DNA of 64,000 nt from Narcine bancroftii (lineage: Eukaryota), in assembly GCF_036971445.1 (NCBI RefSeq), contig NC_091476.1, positions 138,508,001-138,572,000 of the forward strand, given 5' to 3'. Positions 1 to 23,622 of the stretch are shown piece after piece. Every line of letters begins with the position of its first letter. Position 1 is the stretch's first letter. The notes below the pieces were generated by a model. The model was given only the letters and a program-made list of their open reading frames with translations. It was not told the origin of the DNA and ran no database searches. The position numbers were made by a program, and so were the translations under genes.

Positions 1-384
1 TGAAAGAGCTGGGGGGTCACACCTTTTGCCCTGTTCACTGCTCAAGATTGTCTGGCACACAGTTCTAAATCTTACATTGACTAACTTGTAAGTGTTGTAT
101 TGTATGCAAAAAAACAAAACAATATTTTGATGGATGATCAAAGAAAGAGAAAAAATTCCTGTCACACCAACAAATAATTGATATGTGGTTGTTGACAAAT
201 CAGAATAATCAATCCCCTTTTATTAATTTATAGTACATTGACATAGTGGAGAAAGCTTGCATACCATGGAACCACATAGGTTCAGTCATCTATTCCTCAC
301 CAGCATGCCATACTTATCATTTGCCAAGTTCAAATTACCTACACAGTCGTAAAACATTATTTGATGCATTGTCGTTGAACCAGA

Positions 385-1425
385 AAGTTTGCAGATGCTG
401 TGATGGTAGATTACACAAAAATGCTGGAGAAACTCAGCAAATCACACAGTGTTCTTTATGTAGCAAAGATAATGAATCACAACCAAGGTTTTGGACCTGA
501 TCTCTTCAAGGTATGAAAAAAGAGCAGGCAGGTTTCTGAATAAAATGGTGGGGGTGGGGGGGAGGGGCGAAACATAAGCCCACAGGGAAGAGGTAGATAT
601 GAGAAAAAAGTTGAGGTGATAGGGGAAGGGGATAGGTCTGAATGGATAAGAAAGGGGCTGGACAGCTGGAGGAAAGGAGGCAGAGGGATAGGGAGAGAAG
701 GAGATAGGGGTGTGTCCTAACGAAAACTGGAGAAGTTGATGGCAATACTTGACAGATGGAGAATGCCCAGATGGAATATTAGGTGATGCCCCTCCATTTT
801 GAAGATTACCTCAATTTGGCAATTCATGAGGCCATGGACAGACGTGTTGGTATGGGAATGAGGCACAGAATTGAAATGCCCACTGGGAGGCCCCTGCCAT
901 TGCAAAGGTGATCAGTGAAACGATCTCCCAGTCAGCATGCAGTCTCGCCAATGTAGAGAAGGTCATAACTAGAGCAGAGGATGTGTTAGATGACCCTCGT
1001 AGATTCACACGTGAAGTGTTTCATTTCGAAGGACTGTTTGGGGCCATGAATGGTGGTGAGGGAGAAGGTGTGGGCACTGATGCACAATCAATTACTTGAA
1101 AGACTATTATAAAGAAACCAATAGGCTTTTATTCACTTAAGAACACAAGCACATCCATACATTTGGTTGTCCTGCACTGAGCTGCAAGGGACTGTGGAAC
1201 AGTCACCTTTATACAGGAACCTGTGGAGAGGAGCCACAGGTACAACGACCAATAGGTGTGTCTGACCAGACAATTAAACATAACAATGGTTTACCACAGG
1301 CACAAGTGTAGCACTTCCTGCAGTCACAGGGTTAGGTACCAAGGGGGCAATTAGGGAAAAGAGATGATGGGCGAGGGAGGAGTCCCTGCAGAAGATGGAA
1401 AGGGGAGGAATGGGGAATATGTGTT
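385..1425 (-). mobile_element. Penelope-like element 3' fragment (GIY-YIG endonuclease C-terminus plus terminal repeat)
   Basis: Minus-strand remnants KHFTCESTRVI..IGET..LGDRF and HFNSVPHSH..GHHLIFHLGILH..INFSSFR, then the tgctggagaaactcagca terminal motif. Interrupted by a solo LTR. Confidence 0.75.
1078..1298 (-). mobile_element. Solo LTR (221 bp)
   Basis: TG...CA ends, 5-bp TSD GGCAC (1073-1077 and 1299-1303), TATAAA and AATAAA on the minus strand. Confidence 0.85.
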
Positions 1426-1636
1426 TAGTAGTTCATTGTTAATTGGCCTAAATTTTTGGCAAATTTTCAGACAATTTTATCTTGAGATTCAGGTGGTGTT
1501 TCTGTGTGTGTGTGTGTGTGAGGCACAAAAATTGACATTATTACTGATACTACGATTTTAATATGTACTATTTCTCTCTCCTCTTTCCACTTCATTCTTC
1601 AACATTTTCCAATCATGCTTGTGTCCTATTTCAAAG

Positions 1637-1729
1637 TTTGGAACAGGAATACTCTGGCAACAACCTCTGCCCTATCAAGTGTACCAGCCACTGCCCTGGA
1701 AAGTGCAGAGTGTCAGTCGTGTGGACAAG
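1637..1729 (+). CDS. Candidate upstream exon of the PCP4-like gene (xWNRNTLATTSALSSVPATALESAECQSCGQ)
   Basis: Long pyrimidine tract ending tcaaag, donor caag|gtaaaa. 93 nt, open, phase 1-1, compatible with the 13770 acceptor. No recognisable homology. Confidence 0.4.
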
Positions 1730-2724
1730 GTAAAAAGCCACTTGTTCTTTTTGGATTATAGATTGATCGCTGCAACCATTTTTATACATAATTTTTTTTT
1801 AAAGTATTTATTATACATAAATTATAACAACTGTAAAACTTTGATCAATGCGATTTCAGAGTTTGTTCTGCTTGTGTAAGTGCTCTATCACCTCCATATC
1901 CTGAGTATTTTTGGAGGTTAGTGGCAGTATGCTTAATTTAAATCTCTCTGCAGAGACTTGGACACAATGATTTGGAATCCAGCCATGCTCAACAGTGGTC
2001 ACAGCGCATTTAAGGGTAGGGGGCAAAGATTGAAATCATGAATATTTTTTTGTTAGTCAGTAGGAGAGAAGTATGGAAGAAACCAACTAAACTTGACTGC
2101 TTCACAGGGAGGGGACCCATAAACTTTGAGCAGAATCTTATGGAGGGCATAGCCATTAAAAGGCTGAGAATTAGCTGGGTTAGACTGATGCACCTGTGTT
2201 CTTCTGGGAGAATATTGTGAATTGAGGTCATGAGTCATAGAGTTTGGCCAATCTACCCATGCTGACCAAACTACTTCACTCACACTAGTCCCACCTGCCC
2301 CCATTTGGCCAATATCTCTCTAAACTGGTCCCTGTATTTGTCTAAATTGCCCTTAAACTTTGCAATAGCATCTGGCTCAACTACCTCCTCTGGTAGCTTG
2401 TTCCATATACCCACATCCTTTGTTTATTTTCTAACAGGATCAGTGGCACTTCAAAAGAGGTACCATATTGGTCTTTGTATGAACTGATTATACTGTCATC
2501 CTTCCTCTATTACTTAATAGTAAAGTTCATGCTTGGGTCTCAAGAGCTGTGGGGAAAGGTGAAAGCGCACAGAAAGAGGCACTACCGGGTCAGTACCAAC
2601 CATGTGTAACTCATTTGCACTAAACCTCCACCATGATGCCACTCCAAACTAGTTTCATGTGCCTCACATCCCTTTAATCCCTTCCAGATTCTAGCATTTG
2701 CCTGCGCACATGGGCCAATAACCT

Positions 2725-2865
2725 AATAATTAGGGCCTATTTAGGATATGGGAGGAAACTAAACCACCCAGAGGGAGAATATGCAATGCTTCACATAGAC
2801 AGCACCAGAGGTGAGGCTTGAACCTGTGTCCCCGGCATTGTAAGGCAATGGCTCTATCAGCTAAG
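2725..2865 (-). mobile_element. tRNA-derived SINE. Related copies at ~14050-14215(+), 17270-17390(-), 21000-21250(-), 25230-25460(-), 36760-36965(-), 38470-38735(-), 53480-53610(-), 54965-55130(+)
   Basis: Shared core gctgtctgtgtggagtttgcatgttctcccc...gggtttcctcc and tRNA-like heads with a B-box (ggttcaa) in many dispersed copies. Confidence 0.7.
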
Positions 2866-3776
2866 CTGTGGGATTTTGAAAGGTAAAAACCTAAATGTTT
2901 GTCTGGACTGTCTTGCTCTGACTGACTCACCATTGGAATACCGAGAGAGTGGTGAAATATTTAACTCCATTAAAGGATGGAATTCTAATATTCCCAGCAT
3001 TTTGTTTGAAAATAACCCTTTTCTATTCATATCCTCACAGCCAGAATTGAAAATAACCCTCGAGAATCCAAATGTCATAATTTGGAACTTTGTGAACACA
3101 TCGGGATCATTCTGATCCTGGGTCACACACTAGTTATTGTTACAAACAGCAGTGTCCAATTAAATGTATTATTGATATACTGTATAAAAGGTGAAGGATC
3201 CAGGATAAATAAAGGCTTGCAGATTCCCTGTTTATTCGGACACATAGTGAGAAAAACCATGTCCCATTGTCACACAATTCATTGCTGTCAATAATTCAGT
3301 CCTCTAGTGTATTCATTCACAGATTGTGGGCAGTTGCAAGGCACGTAATCACTTTTGGGAAGACCAATAAGGGCAGCAGCTTGCCTTTCATGAAGCAAAT
3401 CTAATTTTTATGACAATTTAATAAGCTTGCAGTCACCATTATTAATGCTAGCTTTTTAATCACAGATTTTCTTAGTTCATTGAATTAAAAAAATCCCCAC
3501 AGGTGCCATGCTGGGATTTGAACTCAAATCTTCAGAATTTTAATCCAATGACATAACCAAAATTGTACCGCACCCACCTGAATTAAATGCTTCTGTTTTA
3601 TTTAAAGTCATCCCTTTGGCAAAATCAGTGATTGGGTGAAATTGAAGTACAGTAAAAATCGCCAGTATCTGGCACCAATGGGGACTGGTAGATGCCAGAT
3701 TAATGAATTTGTGTGTTGAGTAGATTGGCAAACTGACTGCTAGGGGGGGTCAATTTTAAACTTTTGTATTTTTTAC

Positions 3777-4171
3777 CATAGGCACTTCTCAGTTATATGA
3801 TGGGGTTACGTTCCGGTGAACCCATCGAAAGTCAAAATAGAATACCACGCCCACCATTTTTTATAATTAAAAATTGAATACCTTTATTTCACACTGAAAA
3901 ACACCATTAATGTACACACTTGAAGGCACACTGGGCATGAAGAATGTTTGAAGCTTTGAGACTGCGAGTGTGGTTGAGCCAGCATCGCGAGAGAGAATGC
4001 TGTATGATACTTTCAGGTGATGCTGCCTTTGCTCAGCATCGCAAGAGAGTAGCGTACCACCTATCGCAAGTGTAGGAACAGATTGGAATTTAAATTGAAA
4101 CCACTGATTCAAATCATGATAACTTTGAAAAATTGTAAATCAGACCATCGTAAGTAGGAGAGCACCTATAT
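3777..4171. mobile_element. Non-autonomous Tc1/mariner (Tigger/pogo-like) MITE
   Basis: Degenerate terminal inverted repeats cataggcacttctcagttatatgatgg / ccatcgtaagtaggagagcacctata; no ORF. Confidence 0.55.
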
Positions 4172-5819
4172 TTATTTTCCATGATTTTGTTTTTGCCGGT
4201 TGCTTGAGGCTATTGTTTGCTTGAATTCCAGATAACGGGGATTTTACTGTATTCCTATGCAAGTAAGCAGGGGAAAAGAGGAAATGGAATGTTCTGATAG
4301 TACATTGGAATTAATTAAAAATGACTTTCATTAAAAACAAAGTTCTCCTTGCTGCTTAAGCAACCTCTCCATGTCTGCACCTGCTCCAGGTTTTAAAGCA
4401 CTGACCAGAGTGATTAAGGCGTTTTGGATGCACTGCAAATAAAACACAGGGAACAAGGAAGTCATCTTGTTGATATTCCAACAATATGATCTCCATTGAT
4501 GAAAGAAACACCAGAGTAACAAAATAGATGCTTCTCCCAGGCTGATAAACAATTGAACAAGGCCCAGTATGCTGTGTGAGCTTGTTGCATGACTGATGCT
4601 GTTTGCAGCCAGCGTTGACATTTTTATAATTCTATAATCCCTGCTGTGATTTCCACCATCTGTGCATCTCCAGCAGAAGGAATGTGACCTTCCAGTGCTC
4701 AGGGAAAACAGCAGAGTCAAGGGAAAAGGAAGGCAAGAATTTTGCTGGGCTCATAAAAAATGTTGCCAAGTCAAAACTTGACAGTTGAATCGAAATCCAG
4801 ACCATCAGTTCTGAGAGAGAGTGAACTCCTTTCCTGAGAAACAAAATCAATTACATCATTTGTTTTTCAAAGGACAAACCTTTTCTTGCTAACATATCCA
4901 ATGAAAGTTCAGATATATTAATTATGTTTTTCCACAAAATGTTTTTCTTTAATATTGAAATCTTTCAGAAGAGAATGAGATGATTCTTATGGAAAGGTAA
5001 ACAGTGAAGTTAGTAGGCCACACAGCCCAATGAGGAAAGAACATTTTTTGTTTGAAATATGTCGTTTCTTTTCTATAAATGTATATACAGTATTCATATA
5101 CGTTGGCATCATTGACTAGGCCAGCACGTCCATCTTGGGCCTTTGGGCATCAAGAAATGTTTGGGGACTTAAGGAGGCCAGTGAGCCCATTAAATATGTG
5201 CTGATCCTTCAGAGAGCAAGACTGTTAGTCCCCTTTCCCTGCTCATTCCTGTAGCCTTGTCAATTGTTCTCTTTCAAGTGCTTGTCCAATTCCCTTTTCA
5301 AAGCAGTAATTGGAAAGGATCAACGAGGTCAGGGGTAAAATTAATTTCTTCACATGAGCAACATTTGGAGTGGTTTGGAGTCAGTGGTTGGAAACCTTTG
5401 ATTTATTCAGTGAGCACCAAGATGATGTTCATTCTCCTTTTTGATGCCATGTGCTGAACCAGAAGGCTGGGCTCCTTCATCTAAGAACATCCAAAGAACA
5501 TCATGGTTGTGAAGTTTGAGTACGTCTCAGTAGTTTAAAGCCGGTATCTCTTGATGAAGATCTGGGAACTAGACCAGAGGAAGACATTCCTTCAGGAAAT
5601 CTTCATCTACTACTCCCTTCAACCATCGATAAGCTCAATATAATCCTGATGTACCTTTCTGGGCCTCCCATGTAAACTGCAACAATGATCATTAAGAAGT
5701 TGACAGTTGATGGTTGTTTGAGAGCAAACATAAATTTGATTGATAATAGTTTGTGTTGTACTATTAATTTACACAATCAAACCGCATGGATTACTTATAT
5801 CCTTTTGTAATCAAGACTT

Positions 5820-8665
5820 AAGAAGTGAGATGGAGGAGGATAAAAGACATGCGAGGACTCCATGTATAGTCAGAAATCATAGGTTTGTATGTGATAGAAA
5901 TTTTTTCAGGTGTATTTACTTTAATTTAAGAAGTATTGTTAGAAAGGCAGATGAGTTTAGGACATGGATTGACATGTTGGATTATGATATTATTGCTATT
6001 AGTGAGACTTGTTTGCAGGATGGGCAAGACTGGCATCTTAATGTTCCAGGGTACCGTTGCTTCAGACGTGATATAGGAGGAGGAATGAAGGGGGAGGAGT
6101 GGCATTGCTAGTCAGGGAAAATATATCAGTCGTGCGGTCAGGACAGCCAGGAAGACTTGACTAGAGAGGCCATATGGGTGCAGCTGAAAAATGGGAAAGG
6201 TGTGACCACACTGATAGGGTTGTATTATAGACTGCCCAATTGACAGAGAAAATTGAAGGAGGAAATCTGTAGCGAGATAGCAGACCGATGTAAGAAACAG
6301 AACATTGTGATAGTAGGAGATTTTAACTTCCCAAATATTGATTGGAACTCCCATACTGAAAAAGGGCTGGATGGCTTGGGGTTTGTAAAATGTGTCTAGG
6401 AAATTTTTCTAAACCAATACATAGTACATAGAGGTACCAACGAGAGAGAATACAATGCTTTATCTCCTATTAGGGAACAAGACAGGTCAGAAGATTAATG
6501 TATGTGTAGGTGAATATTTTGGATCCATTGATCATAATGTCATTAGCTTCAAGTTATGTATAGAGAAGGATAAGTCTGGTCCTCATGTTGGGGTTTTAAA
6601 TTGGAGGAAAGCAAATTTTGTGGAAATAGAAAAGATCTAGGAAGAGTGGATTTGAATAAGTTGTGTTATGGCAAGGGTGTGTTAGGTAAGTTGAAGGCCT
6701 TCAAGGGTGAAATCTTGAGAGTGCAAAGTTTTCATGTTCCTGTTAGGATTAAAGGGAAAGTTACCAGGCATAGGTATCCTTGGTTTTCTATGGATATTAG
6801 ACATCTTGTTAAGAAAAAGAGGGAGGTGTATAGCAAGTATAGGCAACAAGGAGCTAATGAGGTACTTGAAGAGTTCAAGAAAATCAAGAAAGAAATCAGG
6901 AAGGCAAAAAGAAGACACGAGGCTACTCTGGGAGATTATATGAAGGAAAATCTTAAGGGTTTCTATAAGTATATGAGTAAAAGGGTAGTAAGGGACAAAA
7001 TTTGTCCCCTAGAGGATCAGAGTGGTCAATTATGTGAGGGGGAAGATCTTAAACAGGTTTTTTTTCCATCAGTATTTACTCAGGAAATCAGCATTATGCA
7101 TATGGAAGGAGGGGAAAAAAAACGGAAGAGTCATGGAACAGATGGAGATTAAGGAAGAAGAGGTGCTTGCTGCCTTACAGCGAATAAAGATAGATAAATC
7201 ACCTGGACCAGATATTCCCTCCGACATTGAGGGAGACTAGTGTAGAAATTTGTTGATATATTCTAAATGTCCTTGGCCACAGGTGAGATGCCAGAGGATT
7301 GGAGGGTAGCTCATGCTGTCTGTTTGTTTAAAAAAGGCTCCAAAAATAAACCAGGTAATTATAGGCTGGGTGAGCCTGATATCAGTAATGGGTAACTTAT
7401 TGGAAGAAGTTCTGGGAAACAGGATAGTCCTGGGCTGATTAAGGATATTCAGCACAGCTTTGTGTGTGGTAGGTCATGTTTAATGAATCTTGTAGAGTTT
7501 TTTGAAGAGGTTATCAAGAAGGGTGTTCAAGGAAAGGCAGTGGATATTGTCTACAAGGACTTTATTAAAGCTTTTGACATTATCTCACATGGGAAGTTAG
7601 TTCAGAAGGTTATGACACGAGGTATTTAAGGAGAAGTAAACTGGATTTGAAATTGGCAATGTGGGAGAAAACAGAGGGTGGTAGTGATGGTTGCTTCTCA
7701 GACTGGAGGCCTATGACTAGTGGTGTGCCTCAAGGATTCATGTTGGGACCATTGTTGTTTGTTGTCTGTATCAGTCATCTGGATGATAATGTGGAGAATT
7801 GGATCAGCAATTTTGCTGATGACACAAAGATAGGGGGCATTATGAACAGCGAGGAAAATTTTCAAAGCTTGCAGAAGGATCTGGACTAACTGGGAGAATG
7901 GGCCAGTAAATGGCAGATGGAGTTTGATGCATTTTGGAAGAGGAAAGCAAGGTAGGAGATATATAGTGAATGATAGGGCACTGAGGAGGGCGGAGGAGCA
8001 GAAATCTGGGAATACAATTACATTATTTCCTGAAGGTGGCATCACATGTGGACAGGGTTGTAAAGAAAGATTTTAGTATCTTAGCCTTCATAAATCAAAG
8101 TATTGAGTATAGGAGTTGGGATGTTATGTTGAAGTTTTTTAAGACATCGGTGAGGCCAAATTTGGAATATTGTGTGTAGTTCTGGTCGCCTAACTACAGG
8201 AAGGATATCAATAAGATTGAAAGAGTGCAGGATGTTGCCGGGTCTTCAGGAGTTGAGTTACAGGGAAAGATTAAATAGATTAGAACTTTATTCCTTGGAG
8301 TGAAGAAGAATGAGGGGAGACTTGATAGAAACTTACAAGATTATGAGAGGCATAGACAGAATGGATGCGAATAGGCTCTTTCCACTTACATTGGGGGAGA
8401 TAAATACAAGAGGTCATCATTTTAAGATGAAGGGGGAAAGGTTTAGGGGAAATTCTTCACTTAGAATGTGGAATGAGCTGCCATCAGATGTGGTGAATGC
8501 AGGCTCAATAGTGTGTTTTAAGAATAAATTGGTTAAGTACATGGATGGGAGAGGCCTGGAAGGTTATGGAATGGGAACAAATCACTGGGACTAGGGGGAT
8601 GATGGTTGGCATAGACTAGAGGGGCAAAATGGCCTGTTTTCTGTGCTGTAGCATTCTAATGTTCT
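5820..8665 (+). mobile_element. CR1-clade LINE, degraded ORF2 (APE endonuclease + RT) through the 3' end
   Basis: DIIAISET and VGDFN endonuclease motifs, SGVPQG..LGPLLF and FADDTK RT motifs, RGDLIETYKI tail. Many stops and frameshifts. Confidence 0.92.
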
Positions 8666-9569
8666 ATTTGTAAGCAAAGAGAAGCTGGAGGGACTCAGCA
8701 GATCAGGCAGTATACATGGATAGAAATGATTAAGCAACATTTTAAGTTGGGACCCTTTATTCAAAACTCTAATCAGTCTCAATAAAGGGTTCTGAAAGAA
8801 ACATTGAATTTTTATTTCCACAGATGCTGCCTGATCTGCGGAGTCCTCCAGCTTCCCTTTGTTTTCTCAAAATTCCAGCCACTGCAGTTTTTGTGTTTCT
8901 TAAATACTTTCCTCTGACATTCTCATTTAAGTAAGAACTAGATCAGAAATCCATAATTTCTCAGCAGAAAGCATTCATCTAATGGGATCTCAACCACATC
9001 TACAAGTGTCCAGAACATGGAAACTCGTATATGTCAGATTATAAAATGTAAATCTTGCTGGCTGGATCTATTAGTCTTGATCTACAGAACAGTTCTTCAA
9101 CTGTTAATAATTCAGAAGGTCATAGACTTCCACAGAAATTCTGAATATGAACCTCTGGATTCACCAAGTGGTTGACATGTCTGTGCTTCACGTGGAGTAT
9201 AATTGTTGGATTGCCCTACTTTATAATAGGTCAGACCAGGCATAGGATTGAAAGTCTCCATTCAGGAGGCAAGACATCAGTATTTTTAAAGTTCAGTTGT
9301 GTTTTTGTTGCTTCTAAATATTTTTACATTTTTGGTACATTGTAATAGTCAGGGGGCACTTAAACTGTTAAAATACCTTACTGGTTTGACAGAGGTTGTC
9401 AGTTTTGACTTCTGTGAAAGCTTGTCAGGGTTCTGCGAGCATGCATTCTGCTCTAAACTGCCTGAAGTCTAACAGGCTGACTCAAAGGTGCGGAGGCCCC
9501 GTGAGATCACAAGCTGATTGCACGTGTGCTAGGACTGTAGGCAGTGGGCTGGAGGATCCAACCCATTGT

Positions 9570-9675
9570 TTCTTTCTTCTTTGGCTTGGCTTCGCAGACG
9601 AAGATTTATGGAGGGGGTAAAAGTCCACGTCGGCTGCAGGCTCGATTGTGGCTGACAAGTCCGATGCGGGACAGG
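9570..9675 (-). mobile_element. 5'-truncated RTE-clade LINE 3' end with 11-bp TSD
   Basis: Minus strand reads CLSRIGLVSHNRACSRR (RTE C-terminal motif), then a gccaagccaaagaagaaaga tail. TSD CAACCCATTGT at 9559-9569 and 9676-9686. Confidence 0.85.
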
Positions 9676-10669
9676 CAACCCATTGTATTTACTCCTCTAT
9701 TATAGCTATACAGACACTATAAAGTCAACAGGAGCATAGAGAGGTAAGAGCGACAAGGTGATTACTGTTATAGTCAAATATAAACTGTAACACATGACAT
9801 CATGCATCGTATGCTGCAGCTGAATATACTCAAGTCCAAAGTATTACATTGTCTAAAAGGAAGACGAAACATTTCCGTTGGATGTAATTGTTATGGAGAT
9901 CCCATTTCACCACACCATCACAATTATGCTGATTTGACAAAGCTGAATCTTGAACAAGTATTTTGGCTGTGCAGTTTGCTGAAATGGGTGATTCGTAAAG
10001 AATTATGTCTTAGCAGAAATTCCCCAATTCAAGTTACATTATTTAGAAATTAGTGTATAATTTCTTTCTTTAAAATAAAGATTTTTTTAGCTGAAATGCA
10101 TAAAATCATGTTCCAGATTTATTTTATCTCGCATATTTAAAGGACTTTACCACTAGGAAGCACTGGCCTTGATTTTAAAGACAACAATCCCATGGTAATA
10201 AGATGCGCCTATTCAAGTTGATTCTTGCTTAAGATAGCCATTAGATCAGCACAATTTACAATGACCATTCACACAGATTCTTGTGCTCTTTCATAAGGAC
10301 AGAGGATTTCAACGAAGCAGCAGCGTTAACAGCTCAAAGGGTCACTCCACAAGAGGTAGGTTTTCAATTTCCACATGGCAACCATTCAGAATTCGAATTG
10401 CAACCATCTGGTGTTTCTGAGTCTTTTCTCCAGGTGTCCACACGACTGTTCAGGCAGGCCATGAGAGCTAAAGAAAGAAAAATAAGGAGAGGCCTGTATT
10501 GATATACCACCTTGTATGCCCCATTTAGAACACCCCAAAAGTATGGCAGACAAAAGTTGAAGTATATCATGTATGTTATATTTTTAATGTGTTATTATGT
10601 GATAATAAAAGGAATCTTGAAGTATTTTGGACCCTAGGTCAATGATTGAGCATAGGAAATGCAGCAGAC

Positions 10670-11465
10670 TACAGGTAGTCCCCGACTTATGACCTATGTG
10701 ACTTACGACCATCCTCACATAAGACTGAATTTTAAAAAAGTATATTAAAAGACATAAAACGTACACAGTTTATTTTGTATCTCACAAGCAATAACAGGGA
10801 TACAGGTCATATAAGAGCCAAAATGTGCATACTTACCTTGTTAGTTTGCACCCTGGGGCTGGGTGCAGCCTTCTTCATTCCTGTACGAATGTGCATGCAC
10901 TGTGGTTTTGTGTATTGGAATTTGGTTGGCGCATGCGCGAGAGTTAAGGAGGTGAATTCAATATTGTCAGTGCGCCTAACTCTCGCGCATGTGCCAACCA
11001 AACTCCAATATGCGAACCTGCCATGCATGTGTATTGAAGTTTGGTTGGCACATGCGCGAGAGTTATCCACACTGACAATATTGAATTCGTACATGCGTGA
11101 GATTTAAGGATGCAATTCTGTAATTGTTATATGGTCATATGATTTCAATATCGTCACACCTGCGCCAATCAAACTCCAACACGTGAACCCACCGAAGGCT
11201 TGTGTATGTGCACAGGATTCAAGATGGCCGTGCCCAGCCCCGGGACCCCAGAACGCCAACTAACAAGAATGTGGAAAGATTCACCAAGGTTGATTGAAAA
11301 ATTCAGGAAGCTTCGTTATTGTCAAATGTACAATGAAAAAAAAAATTAATCAAAAAGTTTGATTTAAGTCTTCGGTACTCCACACACGTGGGCACAATTC
11401 TGACTTGCATTCATTCCAAGGTACGACCAATTCTTTGGTCCCCATTATGGTTGAAAGTCAGTGTT
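10670..11465. mobile_element. Tigger/pogo-like non-autonomous DNA element with palindromic interior
   Basis: TA then CAGGTAGTCCCCGACTTATGACC left TIR; degenerate right end; nested inverted repeats at 10850-11245. Confidence 0.6.
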
Positions 11466-12154
11466 TTTGCACACAGTATTGCTCACGCCAACAGCAATTT
11501 AACAATGATTATTTTACTAACATTGTAACAAGGTAACAAACAAAACAAATAACAATTGTAACAATGACTGTTTTACTAACATTGATTTGAGCAGACCGAG
11601 TTGGTATAACCTGATGCCTTGAAATCAATGCCACTAGGATGTGTCGCCCAATTCTGGTGATTTGTCTCTATTGGTGAAAGAAAAATGAAAGAGAAGTATT
11701 GTCAGCTGCAGGATTACATTTTCCATGATGCATAATAATGTGAAAAATTACCAGTAGAGGGAGTGCTCAGTCAATTAAAGGAAGATGGGATAGAATTTCC
11801 AATGTGTTCCCCATGATTGGTTGGAGACTTGATGCAAAGCTCACCAGAAATGAAGTAAGTTGTGTTTCTCTTTGAGTACAAGTTCAGGTATGGTCTTGAA
11901 CAGGTGCAAGAGCAATGCAAGAACAACATTGTTCATGTAGCTGAAAGTTAATGGAATGGTTCGTATGTGGAGTGAGAAAAATGAAATTTGAGAGAGGCTC
12001 ATCATGACTTATAGATTCTAGAGAAGGAAAGAGTTATGAAAAAAAAAACAGCAGGGAAAGGCTATTACTGTGGTTTATTCAAGATTCTTTAGGCTGCACA
12101 CAATGACTTTACATAGTTATGATGCATATGTGTACATACAATATAATTTAGTAT

Positions 12155-12390
12155 ACTGTGACCAGGGTGATGGGGTCCTTTATGATGTTGGCCACCTTCT
12201 TGAAAGGCAGAGCCTCACGTCGATGCCCGCAATGCATGAGAGTTGGAGCTTGTGATGGACCTGGCTAGGTTTGCTACTGTCTGCAGTTCTGCATTCCTGG
12301 ATACTTGAATTACCAAACCAGGCCATGATCCAGACAGTCAGTGTACTTTCTTCAGTATACCTGTTGAAGTTTGATGGAATTTTTAAGACA
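12155..12390 (-). mobile_element. Rex-Babar-type LINE fragment
   Basis: ESTLTVWIMAWFGN motif, shared with the copies at 28600-32755, 56945-57520 and 60435-61315. Confidence 0.65.
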
Positions 12391-12685
12391 TTTGTGCAGA
12401 ATACAGAAAATAAGTACTTTTGCAAAGACTAAACTATCGACTTCGAATCTCTCTCAACAGATTCTTTGACATCTGAGTCTTTCTAGCATTTTCTATTTAT
12501 GTTCCTGGTTAGAATATGTTGTTCTTGCTGTATATTTTTAGGATGTTGAAAGAGTGCAAGCATCTTAAAAAAGTGTATAATATTACAAAAGGAAGAGTGT
12601 TAAAGGAAAGCAGAAAGATTAGACTATATTAATCTTTTTGGAATTGTCTCTCTGAATATGCAAACAAGTTGACATCCCATCAATA

Positions 12686-12897
12686 GAGATAAAATTGGCA
12701 CTTAACAGGGTTTCAACAGTGTCATTACACCCAGCTCCCTGATATTGCAAGGCCTGAGATAAAATTGGCACTTAACATGGTTTCAAAGGTGTCATTACAT
12801 CCAGCTCCCTGATATTGCAAGGCCCGAGATTAAATTGGCACTTAACATGGTTTCAATGGTGTCATTACACCCAGCTCCCTGATATTGCAAGGCCCGA
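12686..12897. repeat. 70-bp tandem repeat, 3 copies
   Basis: Units start at 12686, 12756 and 12826 (gagataaaattggcacttaac...gatattgcaaggcc), near-identical. Confidence 0.95.
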
Positions 12898-13769
12898 AAC
12901 TCTGGCAATTTTTCATTTCACACTAAATGCAAATTATAATGCACTTTCAAAAAAAAAATCAGAAAGATATATTTGTTTTTAAATTATGAAATTATTGTGA
13001 TTCTTTTGACTACTAGATGCAAGAAATGGCATTGGTTCTGGACATTAAATCATTTTGATGTGATAAAACAGTAATAGACATCCCAGGGTTCAGAATCCAT
13101 GGTTACAAAAGGCAATGCAAGATAACCTGACTTGCTAAATGATAGAATTAGCTCATTATTGTAAAAAAAATGAGTTTTGAAAACACAATTCCACCTCAGG
13201 GGCCAATATCATATTATTTTATGGCAAGCAAAGGATTTTGGAAAATTAGCACTCATGGTACTGAGAAGAAGCACACAGATCAGGCATTATGGAAGGATTG
13301 TTTGATAGTGATTTGTAAGCTATTCTGAGAACACACATTTGGCTGAGTGATTCTGAAACTCCCATTGTTGTGGCAGAAATACATAATTTTTCTTCAACAC
13401 AAGTTCTAACATCTAACAGTCTCTATACCTGTAGGGCACCCCACTGTGCAATAGATTTCCTTCTCATCTTAAACCTATGCCCTCTGATTATAGATTCCTC
13501 TACCTTGGGGAAAACACCGACTACTTACCTCATCTGTGCCCCTCATTATCTTTGAAACTTCTACAAGGTCTCCTCTCAGCCTCTGACACTCCCAGCCTGT
13601 TCTTGTACCTCAATCCAGCCTGACCCAATATTACTTTAACCTTTATTGCTTTCAATTCAGATCTCCAACATTTTGCATTTGGACACAAGTTAAAAATTAA
13701 ACTGCGGCACAGTTAAAAGACTTGAGTGACAAAATAATTGTCATATAAAGTTAATTTATATTTTTGCAG

Positions 13770-13891
13770 TGTCTGTACATATTGATCATTCAGAAGAACC
13801 CAGCCTGGAGAGAGCAGCTGTAACCATCCAGAAGCAGTAGAGGAGGTACCAGCAATACAAGAAGATCAACAGCAACCCACAAGGGGTGTGA
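13770..13891 (+). pseudogene. PCP4/PEP-19-like IQ-motif terminal exon with in-frame TAG (xSVHIDHSEEPSLERAAVTIQKQ*RRYQQYKKINSNPQGV*)
   Basis: tttttgcag acceptor, phase-1 start. An acidic ID..EE segment and ERAAVTIQ..xRR resemble PCP4 ([14 protein letters not shown]). TAG at 13838-13840, TGA at 13889-13891, AATAAA at 14040-14045. Pseudogene status is uncertain. Confidence 0.7.
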
Positions 13892-16800
13892 TATGCCAGG
13901 AGGTCTTTACTGTCGTACCAAAGTCCTTGCTGTTTAACAGTAGTGATCGTTTATTAGATACCAGGTCCAGCACATAAAAGTAGATGATTGTTCATTTTCC
14001 TGCCTATGATTTGTTGAACTGTATATTTCTATGGTATTTAATAAAGATTAGAAGACATGAGGAGTTTGTCCATTCTCCCCATGACTGCATGGGTTTCCTC
14101 CGGATGCTCCGGTTTCCTAACAAATTCCAAAGTCGGTTAATTGGTCACATGGGTGTATTTGGGTGGCACGGGCTCATGGGCAGGAAGGCCCAGTTACCTG
14201 TATCTCTAAATTAATTTTTTTTTAAATTATGAACCAAATGTTGATTGTGGACTGGAGGCCCAGTGGAAGGTACACTTAGAATCATGGTCATGCCTTCATT
14301 TAATTCCAAACAGAAGGATTCAAACTTCTTCTATCAATGCCCTTAAGTGTATTTTCTAAAATAAATTCAGTGAGTCTAAACTCATTCTCGCTGTGTCAGA
14401 TTGGCTCTCTGAGGAACACTTGTATCTCTGTGCTGCAGTAACAGAGTGGCTGGAACCTCTTCACACATTCTGAAGAGTAAAATGACGTAGTGTTGTGAAA
14501 AATCCATTTTGTCTGGAATGGAGCAATTTTCCACACTTTTCTGGGTGTCTTGGTGCCCATCTTAGCCAAACATTGCAGGATAAGTAATCTAGCTCATGCC
14601 GTATCTCTCTGAGACACCATGGTGATTGAAATGGAAAGGAACAGAGGAGATTGATCAGAAATTGTCAGGACTGGAAAATTGAGGAGGAGCTTGTGCAAGC
14701 TTTAGTCATTTTCATCTGAACAGTGTAAATGTCGAGAGGGCATGATGAAAAAGATTTAACATTTATGAAGGATCTGCATGAAGAAAATGGGAAGTTTCAA
14801 GTTTTATTAGTTGAGGGATCAAAAAACTAGATTTACTTCCTATTGACTCTGTGTGGCCTGCTGAGTTTCTCCAGTAATTTTGTGAAATTACACTGAACAT
14901 CAGCATATGCAGATTTACTTGTTAGTACTTGGGAACACATTAAGAGGAGAGCAAAGAAAATGTGGTACAGGTCTGGTACTCGTTGGCTGAATGAGCCCAA
15001 AATCTCATTACTCGATGACCTTTGACTCACAAGACTCTAGGTGCAGTACTGAGGGATGAAGTTAAGTTGGCTTGTTCATCTATGACTGATACAAACCCAA
15101 TGGACTCAATGGCCTTCTTCTGAGACATAACATTTCCTTGATTTTCTGATCCTGCCACTTGATTCTATTTTATTTTTTTGATGAGATTTTCATTCTCTCT
15201 AGCACCTTCTTTCCAGTGGAAATTTCCCCCAATGAGGGTTCAGTTGTGTATCAATATCCACCATGGAGAAGGACAAGGGCAAACACAAGATCAGTGTAGG
15301 GTTGCTCTAATAATCTCAGGGACGTTGATCTCAAGAACAAAGAGATGTCAGATTTATTTATACCACAAACAGCAGAGGTCCCAGGACTGATCCCTATGGA
15401 ACACCAGTAGTGATAGACCTCCACTAGCAGTGAGGGTAGAATGAGGGAACATAGACTCAAGATTTGGGGGAGTAAACAAAACACAGAAGGAACTTCTTTC
15501 CCCAGAGAGATGTGAAAATGTGGAATTTGACTAAGGAAGCAGTGGGGGTGCCTCATTAAATATATATGACATAATTAGATTTTTACACAGTAGGAGGTTT
15601 GGAAAAAAGGAGTTGAGTCCAAGGCCATGATATTGTTGAATGGTGGAGCAGTCTCGATGGCCTCCTGCCCGTGTTTCTTATGTTCTTGTGACTGGATAAC
15701 TTTTGATTCTAAAATTCCCTTTCTCCACCTCCCATGTCTAATAACTTAATGGCTAAATGTATCAGGGTGTCCAAAGAAAGTTAATTAAAAAACAATGTTT
15801 TAATGCTGTTTTTCGCTCAGACATTGCAGAGCCCTGGAGCAGTGGCTTTTAAATCCAGGAGAATGCAGGGTAGTCTAGGACAGTTGTCAACCCATCAAAA
15901 GGCAAAGGGTCATCCTGCTCTGAACTGGTTGAACTGCCTTGCAATGCCCTGACTACATGACTGCCACATTCCAGAGCACCTATTTAAAAAACGAATGCCA
16001 GGGGAAGGGTGATAGTGACCAACTGAAGCACAATGACAAATGCAATTGGAGCCGTCTCTCACTCAGTAGCCTGAAGAGACTCATGAATGTTTTGCAGGGT
16101 GTCTCTGTTATCTGCTGAAATATTCCACACATAATACTCAATATTCAAAACAACAATGGTTGTAGAAATCACCTTGCAAGACACCTGAAGCCCCAAGCCA
16201 CCTCGCAAAGCAATTAGCAAAGAATAACTCAAGCAGCTTTTGTTTCTTGTGTTGAGTAATAGGTGGTGAAAAGCTGAGGGTTAATAACTATTTGAACCTG
16301 AATATCAGCCAGTCGGAGGAGGATCAGGCGGAGAGAGTTCCCAGTCACATGAAGCTGGTGCACAGCAACAGAATGATAGTAAGTACGGCCCTAAACCCAG
16401 ATGGTTTGTATTCCAATTACATAGCTGTTGAAGAAACACAAGCAGTTCTAAGGAGTATGAAGAGACAGTGGAAAAGGCCACATATGCTGCAGTATCATTC
16501 AGTTTAGGCTTGTGATCATTAGGAAGTAGAGACTCTCATTATTCTCCTACTCTACTTAGGATAGAAATATCAACGACAGCACTAGTAAGGACCACAAGCC
16601 TGTTACCGTGCTGTATGACTTAAAAAATCTCTGAATCCGTGTTAACAGACATGTTCCAGTGCCCTGAAGCTGACCTGTTTGCTTGATTAATTGCCCAATC
16701 CTAGACTCCAGAGGCCTCCAGGTGAGCTTGGGGCTTAATTCAAATATCTACCAACATCATTGTTTTTGATTAACCCTTCACCCCCCCCTGGATCTTATGT

Positions 16801-23185: not shown

Positions 23186-23622
23186 CTACACCAGGGTATA
23201 GGACTTTGAATAGGCTCCTGCTCCCTGTTTCTGTGACCTGCCCAGTCCGGCTGCACTCATCTCTAGTAGCGAGTCTCTAGAGCCGCTGATTTTGGTGTGG
23301 GCAGACAGTCGTGGTTCAGAAGGGGCGCTGGCTCCTGCAGCGGTGGTGCTGGTAGCCGTGGTGTTGGTGGTAGTCGTAGCGGTGGGGGCTGTGGAACCTG
23401 GCACGGTGAGAGTCCTCTGAGGTAAGGTGGTCGTGGCATGCGGGTGAATGGGTGGCTTGCTGTTGGGGTCGAGGGTCACGTGCCGGCCTTGGGACTGGTA
23501 TGCTCTGGCCACGTTCCGGATAGAGGCTTCCCTTGGTGGCACCACGGGGCAAGGGTCGCGAGCATCCGGTTTGCGGAAGAACGCATCTGATTTGACGTAG
23601 AGAGGAAGATTGCAATAATCGC
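23186..23622 (-). CDS. DSCAML1: DSCAML1 terminal coding exon ending in PDZ-binding motif SYTLV
   Basis: CAG acceptor at 23623-23625, TAG stop at 23186-23188. The ending GRSQKQGAGAYSKSYTLV is the DSCAML1 type rather than the DSCAM type. Confidence 0.97.

Follow-up and report, generated by a model that had tools for sequence, protein, structure and literature searches.

The window analysed here, a stretch of 64,000 nucleotides from the ray Narcine bancroftii (NCBI RefSeq assembly GCF_036971445.1, contig NC_091476.1, forward-strand positions 138,508,001 to 138,572,000), contains a small spliced gene whose last exon resembles that of PCP4, the gene for the calmodulin regulator PEP-19, and which stands tail-to-tail with a gene read as DSCAML1. 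We regard it, with a probability of about 0.6, as a paralogue of PCP4 that goes back to a genome duplication and that has by now become a transcribed pseudogene. It is derived from the PCP4 family and is not an intact regulator of the PCP4 type. Three of its exons, called A, B and C in their order along the forward strand, carry the argument.

Exon C starts in phase 1 behind an acceptor AG at 13768-13769 and encodes a weakly acidic segment, a proline and an IQ motif, after which comes a 3' untranslated region (UTR). Its frame is interrupted by a TAG at the position that corresponds to Phe50 of PEP-19. The TGA further on, likely the former stop, lies 30 codons after the conserved proline, compared with 25 codons in the ray's own PCP4. 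An earlier note on this DNA, made from the letters alone, had described the acceptor, the phase-1 exon with its peptide, both stop triplets and an AATAAA, and all of these are in place. Within the 3.33-Gb genome of Narcine bancroftii the only match of exon C is exon C itself.

By profile, shuffle tests and tree, exon C resembles PCP4 more than it does the other small IQ proteins, PCP4L1 being outside this comparison. A PCP4 profile was built from 64 proteins of 50-75 residues, out of 78 PCP4-like proteins retrieved, and run against 23,196 six-frame tiles covering 464 kb. Exon C ranks first after PCP4 itself with 22.8 bits (E 8.5e-5), compared with 13.3 bits for the best unrelated tile. The part ahead of the TAG reaches 11.4 bits, which places about half of the score beyond the stop. 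When exon C was aligned with four PCP4 proteins the z scores were 10.0-11.9, and for each of them 0 of 2000 shuffles reached the score; the corresponding values were 3.2 (24/2000 shuffles) for the ray's NRGN-like protein, 4.2 (3/2000) for its GAP43-like protein and 4.7 (1/2000) for an unnamed IQ peptide. The names NRGN-like and GAP43-like are our presumption from their motifs. Over 33 columns no PCP4 is more than 45% identical to exon C, and from Pro37 to Lys57 10 of 21 residues are identical to PCP4/PEP-19, which is also the best match of the exon in the PDB (E 0.022). A tree of 22 rows and 37 columns, including 18 selected PCP4s and no PCP4L1, places exon C on the PCP4 side (support 99/95) as sister to all 18 PCP4 rows (86/82, unstarred). 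A grouping with NRGN and GAP43 was rejected (p-AU 0.005, from the approximately unbiased test).

The exon-intron structure agrees with this assignment. A blind scan of positions 1-13770 for a short exon running from phase 0 to phase 1 returned exon B as its sole match; the same rule gives 17 matches in 800,000 control bases, so 0.29 would be expected by chance. Exon B is the counterpart of PCP4 exon 2, which in the ray's PCP4 measures 52 nt and has the same phases. Such a middle exon followed by a phase-1 terminal exon is thus common to both genes, whereas at the NRGN-like and GAP43-like loci the IQ exon apparently starts in phase 0, as judged by eye. The introns between the three exons span 8.6 kb and 3.4 kb in the phases of PCP4 and rule out a processed retrocopy of PCP4 or PCP4L1. 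Both the family membership proposed by the earlier note and its view that the exon is no retrocopy are therefore upheld.

The position of the gene fits an origin by genome duplication. In the window, the stop codon of the DSCAM-family gene lies on the opposite strand, 9.1 kb from the end of the PCP4-like transcript, and the two genes converge as the earlier note had stated (about 9 kb). Two upstream exons of this gene match the Pfam family FN3_DSCAM-DSCAML_C; for its tail no PDB match was found. An exon of it has one paralogue in the genome, on another chromosome-scale contig, C16, where the stop at 13,018,859 (+) faces PCP4 at C16:13,054,913 (-), 36 kb beyond. This PCP4 is intact (PEP-19 E 4e-13; RefSeq XP_069748450.1, named PCP4-like): its first exon ends in ATG plus two codons, and the 52-nt exon and the phase-1 terminal exon follow. 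Because the copy on C16 adjoins PCP4, the one on the window's contig, C17, is named DSCAML1 by elimination, and its tail agrees with what we take to be the C-terminal sequence of DSCAML1. The same genome thus shows a mirrored arrangement, PCP4-DSCAM on C16 and the window gene with DSCAML1 on C17, which is the counterpart block that the earlier note had postulated. There is in addition a GAP43-like gene on C16 and an NRGN-like gene on C17. In the 200 kb of C17 upstream of the window lie DPAGT1, a zinc-finger gene that we take to be HINFP, C2CD2L and an H2A gene that ends in the SQ motif of H2AX; H2AX, C2CD2L and DPAGT1 are presumably all genes of human 11q23.3. C2CD2 was not found by a family search and adds nothing on C16. 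For jawed vertebrates, a preprint reports that Pcp4 adjoins Dscam and that Cep164 adjoins Dscaml1; it places the split of DSCAM and DSCAML1 likely before the divergence of cyclostomes and jawed vertebrates, and its passages on these neighbourhoods name no PCP4-like gene at Dscaml1 (10.64898/2026.04.14.718097). That the window gene is a third copy is read from its position.

The locus is spliced and likely polyadenylated. Three sequencing runs (X1-X3) of one study were compared with positions 1200-16000; none is on record as RNA, and their RNA nature is read from contigs that skip introns. Record 1 of X1 (862 nt, depth 52.9) and record 8 of X2 (660 nt, depth 11.9) both consist of exon A, 59 letters and exon C with zero differences, and the 59 letters amount to exon B plus overlaps at its edges. 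Contigs of this form are therefore seen in two of the three runs, among the pieces listed. Inclusion of exon B is inferred from the 59-nt gap, since the A-B and B-C joints are not among the 15 of 170 joints listed. X3 has depth over the exon bins, and no piece of it is among those listed. In repeat-free intronic bins the depth is 0 to 0.84. The splice joint at 13770, for which the earlier note had looked to RNA reads, is thus supported at the level of contigs in X1 and X2. Exon C thus closes a genuine spliced transcript, and the gene reaches beyond the interval that the earlier note had given.

Over 13768-14054 (X1) and 13768-14051 (X2) the contigs show no letter difference from the genome; they end 6-9 bases past the AATAAA, and both contain the TAG. 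The TAG is present in the transcript, and an assembly error at this position is rejected. Contigs give no tissue, level or strand, they drop minority variants, and the runs may come from the animal that was assembled.

What has been lost can be read from PEP-19. In its structure the groove of calmodulin takes up Phe50 and Phe53, which are buried there, and the mutants F50G, R51K, K56A and K57A have impaired peptide activity, according to the passages of PMC5122967 on these residues. In the window gene the IQ helix (PEP-19 residues 38-58) is incomplete, the TAG standing at position 50. Read through the TAG, the frame keeps Ile46, Gln47, Arg51 and Lys57 and has Tyr in place of Phe53. The acidic segment contains 4 acidic residues compared with 5, 7 and 7 in three PCP4s; of Pro37 and the PEP-19 anchors Phe30, Ile32 and Met34, the proline is kept, an Ile-Asp pair occurs at an offset of one residue and Met34 is absent. 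As the TAG cuts the IQ motif, the gene is likely non-functional in Narcine bancroftii.

There are further signs of decay. Exon A ends in GTG plus two codons ahead of a phase-0 donor, where PCP4 exon 1 has ATG plus two codons, so that a first coding exon of the PCP4 type is absent. It is speculative to see a decayed start codon in this GTG: a start there would give 62 codons, the length of PEP-19, with a weak match, and a triplet one change away from ATG turns up by chance about once in seven. No ATG was found in exon A, in exon B or in exon C ahead of the TAG, and the transcripts are modelled with three alternative first exons and two reading frames. The earlier note had left open whether the lineage retains this copy or is now losing it; with the TAG in the RNA contigs and no ATG of the PCP4 type, losing is favoured and retaining is not.

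Four RefSeq models, XP_069752205-8, each called 'uncharacterized protein [Narcine bancroftii]', already cover the gene. All of them run through exons A, B and C and stop at the TAG, and three first exons located 1-3.4 kb upstream of the window set them apart; one isoform uses an acceptor 5 nt further into exon B, and one of the four translates exon A in a different frame. Derived from the same assembly, these models are not independent evidence for the TAG. The earlier note had called the gene hidden, which holds for the list of open reading frames, from which it is missing, but the gene is not unannotated.

Taken together, the following history can be proposed. An early doubling of the vertebrate genome would have copied the PCP4-DSCAM block and left the window gene beside DSCAML1. 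The ancestral product would have been a disordered peptide of about 62 residues with an IQ helix that bound the C-lobe of calmodulin as PEP-19 does, and probably a weaker tuner of calcium binding, because its acidic residues number 4 against 5-7 and the Met34 anchor is missing. Stops in a last exon escape junction-dependent nonsense-mediated decay; with its premature stop in the last exon, the present mRNA would for this reason escape and persist. Any peptide made from it would end four residues into the motif and would be without equivalents of Phe50, Arg51, Phe53, Lys56 and Lys57, whence it is predicted not to bind calmodulin. Inactivation was likely recent, to judge by the frame past the stop, which still resembles an IQ motif.

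Before that, comparison with the ray's PCP4 suggests long purifying selection. Over 20 codons from Pro37 to Lys57 the proportion of synonymous differences (pS) is 0.99 and that of nonsynonymous differences (pN) 0.31, and no exon or UTR of the window gene has a blastn match to the ray's PCP4 locus. Of the ten identical residues, six have codons with silent differences (p 0.013 against a neutral null with one branch). In a wider reading, the gene was a third PCP4-type calmodulin regulator of jawed vertebrates, selected for hundreds of millions of years and intact in other chondrichthyans, and this electric ray is seen just after the loss, its gene still being spliced and polyadenylated; we would give this somewhat short of an even chance.

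Several observations weigh against a decayed genome-duplication paralogue. The Pfam IQ model scores 16.8 bits on exon C, below its cut-off of 20.3, and when exon C was searched against 1.84 billion proteins, PCP4 was not among the 16 matches at E<=0.001. Fourteen of these are long proteins aligned over 2-10 stretches; the two that are identical to exon C up to the stop are RefSeq models of this locus. As PCP4 is absent from these matches, the family call rests on similarity, gene structure and synteny together. The tree has only 37 columns and the branch is saturated. The tree check proposed in the earlier note gave an answer on NRGN and GAP43; nesting within PCP4 is not rejected (p-AU is 0.19 for a grouping with PCP4 of the ray itself and 0.30 for one with chondrichthyan PCP4s), and PCP4L1 stands outside the tree. 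Under a fairer two-branch null the silent-site signal weakens to p 0.093. All three runs belong to one study and maybe to the assembled animal, and other members of the species may lack the TAG. CEP164 was not recognised among the C17 genes upstream of the window, no direct search for it having been made; the local gene order may have changed, a hint of rearrangement.

Nor did an orthologue appear among the proteins of other species, though PCP4 is on record for many sharks and rays. Exon C yielded none among proteins of 22-70 residues, and exons B-C up to the stop, searched against proteins of 50-160 residues, gave two candidates, both this genome's own models. Among the best 80 of 340 candidates of a two-row profile, two were again these models and the rest PCP4, PCP4-like or unnamed proteins, 74-100% identical to the last exon of PCP4. 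Searches of this kind depend on exact words in common or collapse relatives into a single cluster, and absence is not shown by them. An Atlas search with the truncated natural protein gave only leads under 0.9; the ray's PCP4 led to PCP4 clusters.

PCP4L1 lies near MPZ (human 1q23) and is much closer to PCP4 in sequence than the window gene is. A canonical PCP4L1 was not found in this genome by two patterns and a protein search, nor among 19,998 profile tiles over the 400 kb around a Myelin-P0 (MPZ-family) match (C11:214,500,001-214,900,000); it may be lost, diverged or elsewhere. This missing gene lends some weight to a rather unlikely alternative, in which the window gene belongs to the PCP4 family without being a separate genome-duplication copy: it could be the PCP4L1 orthologue, whether moved to DSCAML1 or retained there, or could stem from an old duplication of PCP4 as a single gene. 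The tree, too, does not reject nesting in chondrichthyan PCP4. A chance landing tail-to-tail with the sole paralogue of PCP4's neighbour is unlikely, however, the identity to PCP4 is below the value that we take PCP4L1 to have, and the introns leave no room for a duplicate made by retrotransposition.

Unlikely, too, is a PCP4-type calmodulin regulator that still works in the species, with the TAG as a null allele that is private to the sampled animal or segregating. The gene has just one certain lesion, its frame is otherwise open to a TGA near the position of PCP4's stop, phases, splicing and polyadenylation are intact, and the runs all come from one study. Both listed contigs nevertheless show the TAG form only, the missing PCP4-type ATG amounts to a second lesion, and the acidic segment is eroded.

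Another reading takes the TAG for a true stop and has the locus now making a different, truncated or secreted peptide, with a hydrophobic start like a signal peptide from one of the first exons, followed by a Pro/Gln-rich exon A. XP_069752207 does open with nine-residue windows of hydropathy 1.9-2.8, and all three frames of exon A are free of stop triplets (89/20,000 shuffles, noticed post hoc). We hold this to be improbable: in protein searches the N-terminal parts return only this genome's own models and no homologue, and the isoforms read exon A in two frames. Exon A also contains a short internal duplicated unit.

It is quite improbable that exon C is an unrelated IQ-like sequence or a chance similarity in a non-coding transcript. 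The long multi-stretch proteins that top the library-wide search, a PDB E value of only 0.022 and Atlas leads that all stay under 0.9 would suit such an origin; profile rank and shuffle tests speak for the family instead, as do the two matching intron phases, the terminal position and the mirrored synteny. Recoding of the amber codon, by adenosine-to-inosine editing to a Trp codon or by readthrough, into a regulated full IQ peptide is most improbable, for even with a stop at an aromatic position of the motif, a conserved frame downstream and contigs that cannot reveal minority editing, neither of the two listed contigs has an edited letter, the TAG region folds no better than shuffles (z -0.36), the 25 longest of 407 inverted repeats do not involve exon C, and the context of the TAG does not resemble established readthrough motifs.

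Features of the window discussed in the text, with their positions counted from its first letter.
Feature	Position	Strand	Basis
Exon A, 93 nt, internal in RefSeq models, without ATG	1637..1729	+	mapped RefSeq models; contigs X1 record 1 and X2 record 8
Exon B, 58 nt, phase 0 to phase 1, Ser/Gly/Lys-rich	10298..10355	+	blind scan; RefSeq; contig gap
Exon C, terminal, phase-1 acceptor, 3' UTR included	13770..14054	+	sequence; RNA contigs; profile and shuffle scores
In-frame TAG at the PEP-19 Phe50 position	13838..13840	+	genome and RNA contigs
TGA, likely former stop	13889..13891	+	sequence
AATAAA polyadenylation signal	14040..14045	+	sequence; contig ends at 14051 (X2) and 14054 (X1)
DSCAM-family gene read as DSCAML1, coding part of last exon (stop at 23186-23188)	23186..23622 (5' edge approximate)	-	sequence; Pfam on upstream exons

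Some other observations concern the surroundings. The intron between exons A and B holds, at about 5900-8650, a decayed element that resembles a long interspersed element, as judged by eye and from the deep cross-mapping of contigs to it. Within the B-C intron, nested inverted repeats at 10852-11244 (longest arms 57 nt at 93% complementarity) look like a small non-autonomous transposon, and a tandem repeat with a 70-base unit in 3 copies, 94% matched, occupies 12686-12897. Elsewhere in the genome, near 315,828,350 of contig C9, a short exon combines an acidic segment, a proline and an IQ start of the NRGN/GAP43 type with a donor directly after it; it has no Pfam match and is neither the NRGN-like nor the GAP43-like locus. 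Two other matches of a loose sequence pattern did not resemble exons of the family and were set aside. The ray's PCP4 has itself diverged further than its counterparts in other sharks and rays, forming its own 90% cluster where skate, sawfish and shark proteins share one.

If the window gene is a genome-duplication paralogue of PCP4, the family gains a further branch, and the tail-to-tail pairing of PCP4 and DSCAM dates to before the split of DSCAM and DSCAML1. The 'uncharacterized protein' annotation would be corrected, and the locus would offer a clean example of early gene decay. With its reshaped acidic segment, an intact orthologue would provide a natural variant for testing how such peptides tune the calcium binding of calmodulin. 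Pcp4 is expressed in sturgeon neuromasts and ampullary organs, as the parts of PMC13069148 on this gene describe; this makes electroreceptor expression worth checking and says nothing about the window gene itself. The literature searched, which lacked most subscription papers, contained no description of a PCP4-like gene beside DSCAML1, and the main text of PMC11979771 has no mention of pcp4 or dscaml1.

Among known systems the closest is PCP4/PEP-19 (PDB 2N77; ray XP_069748450.1). In both genes acidic segment, proline and IQ motif are encoded by a terminal exon that starts in phase 1; both also have a short middle exon from phase 0 to phase 1 and a DSCAM-family gene tail-to-tail. The window gene differs by its stop at Phe50, by the lack of an ATG at the end of the preceding exon and by its linkage to DSCAML1. 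It further has additional exons upstream, fewer acidic residues, one more residue ahead of the proline and Lys at Ser48, and it lacks the Met34 anchor. Neurogranin and GAP43 are likewise small calmodulin-binding IQ proteins, and the NRGN-like gene also lies on C17, but they differ in IQ signature, in the apparent phase 0 of their IQ exon and in a far lower similarity (z 3.2 and 4.2). Like the window gene, PCP4L1 is a paralogue of PCP4. According to a passage of the review PMC5424795, Pcp4l1 in its full length binds calmodulin only when an aromatic residue replaces Ile36; at the presumed matching position the window gene has a non-aromatic residue as well. A similar history, an extra genome-duplication paralogue at a paralogous position in cartilaginous fish, is described for crh2 in the relevant part of PMC9353778. 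Paralogues of that type were kept in only some vertebrate lineages, whereas the window copy, in the single species looked at, is broken. With this class of event already familiar from cartilaginous fish, the gene beside DSCAML1 is a useful rather than a startling addition to it.

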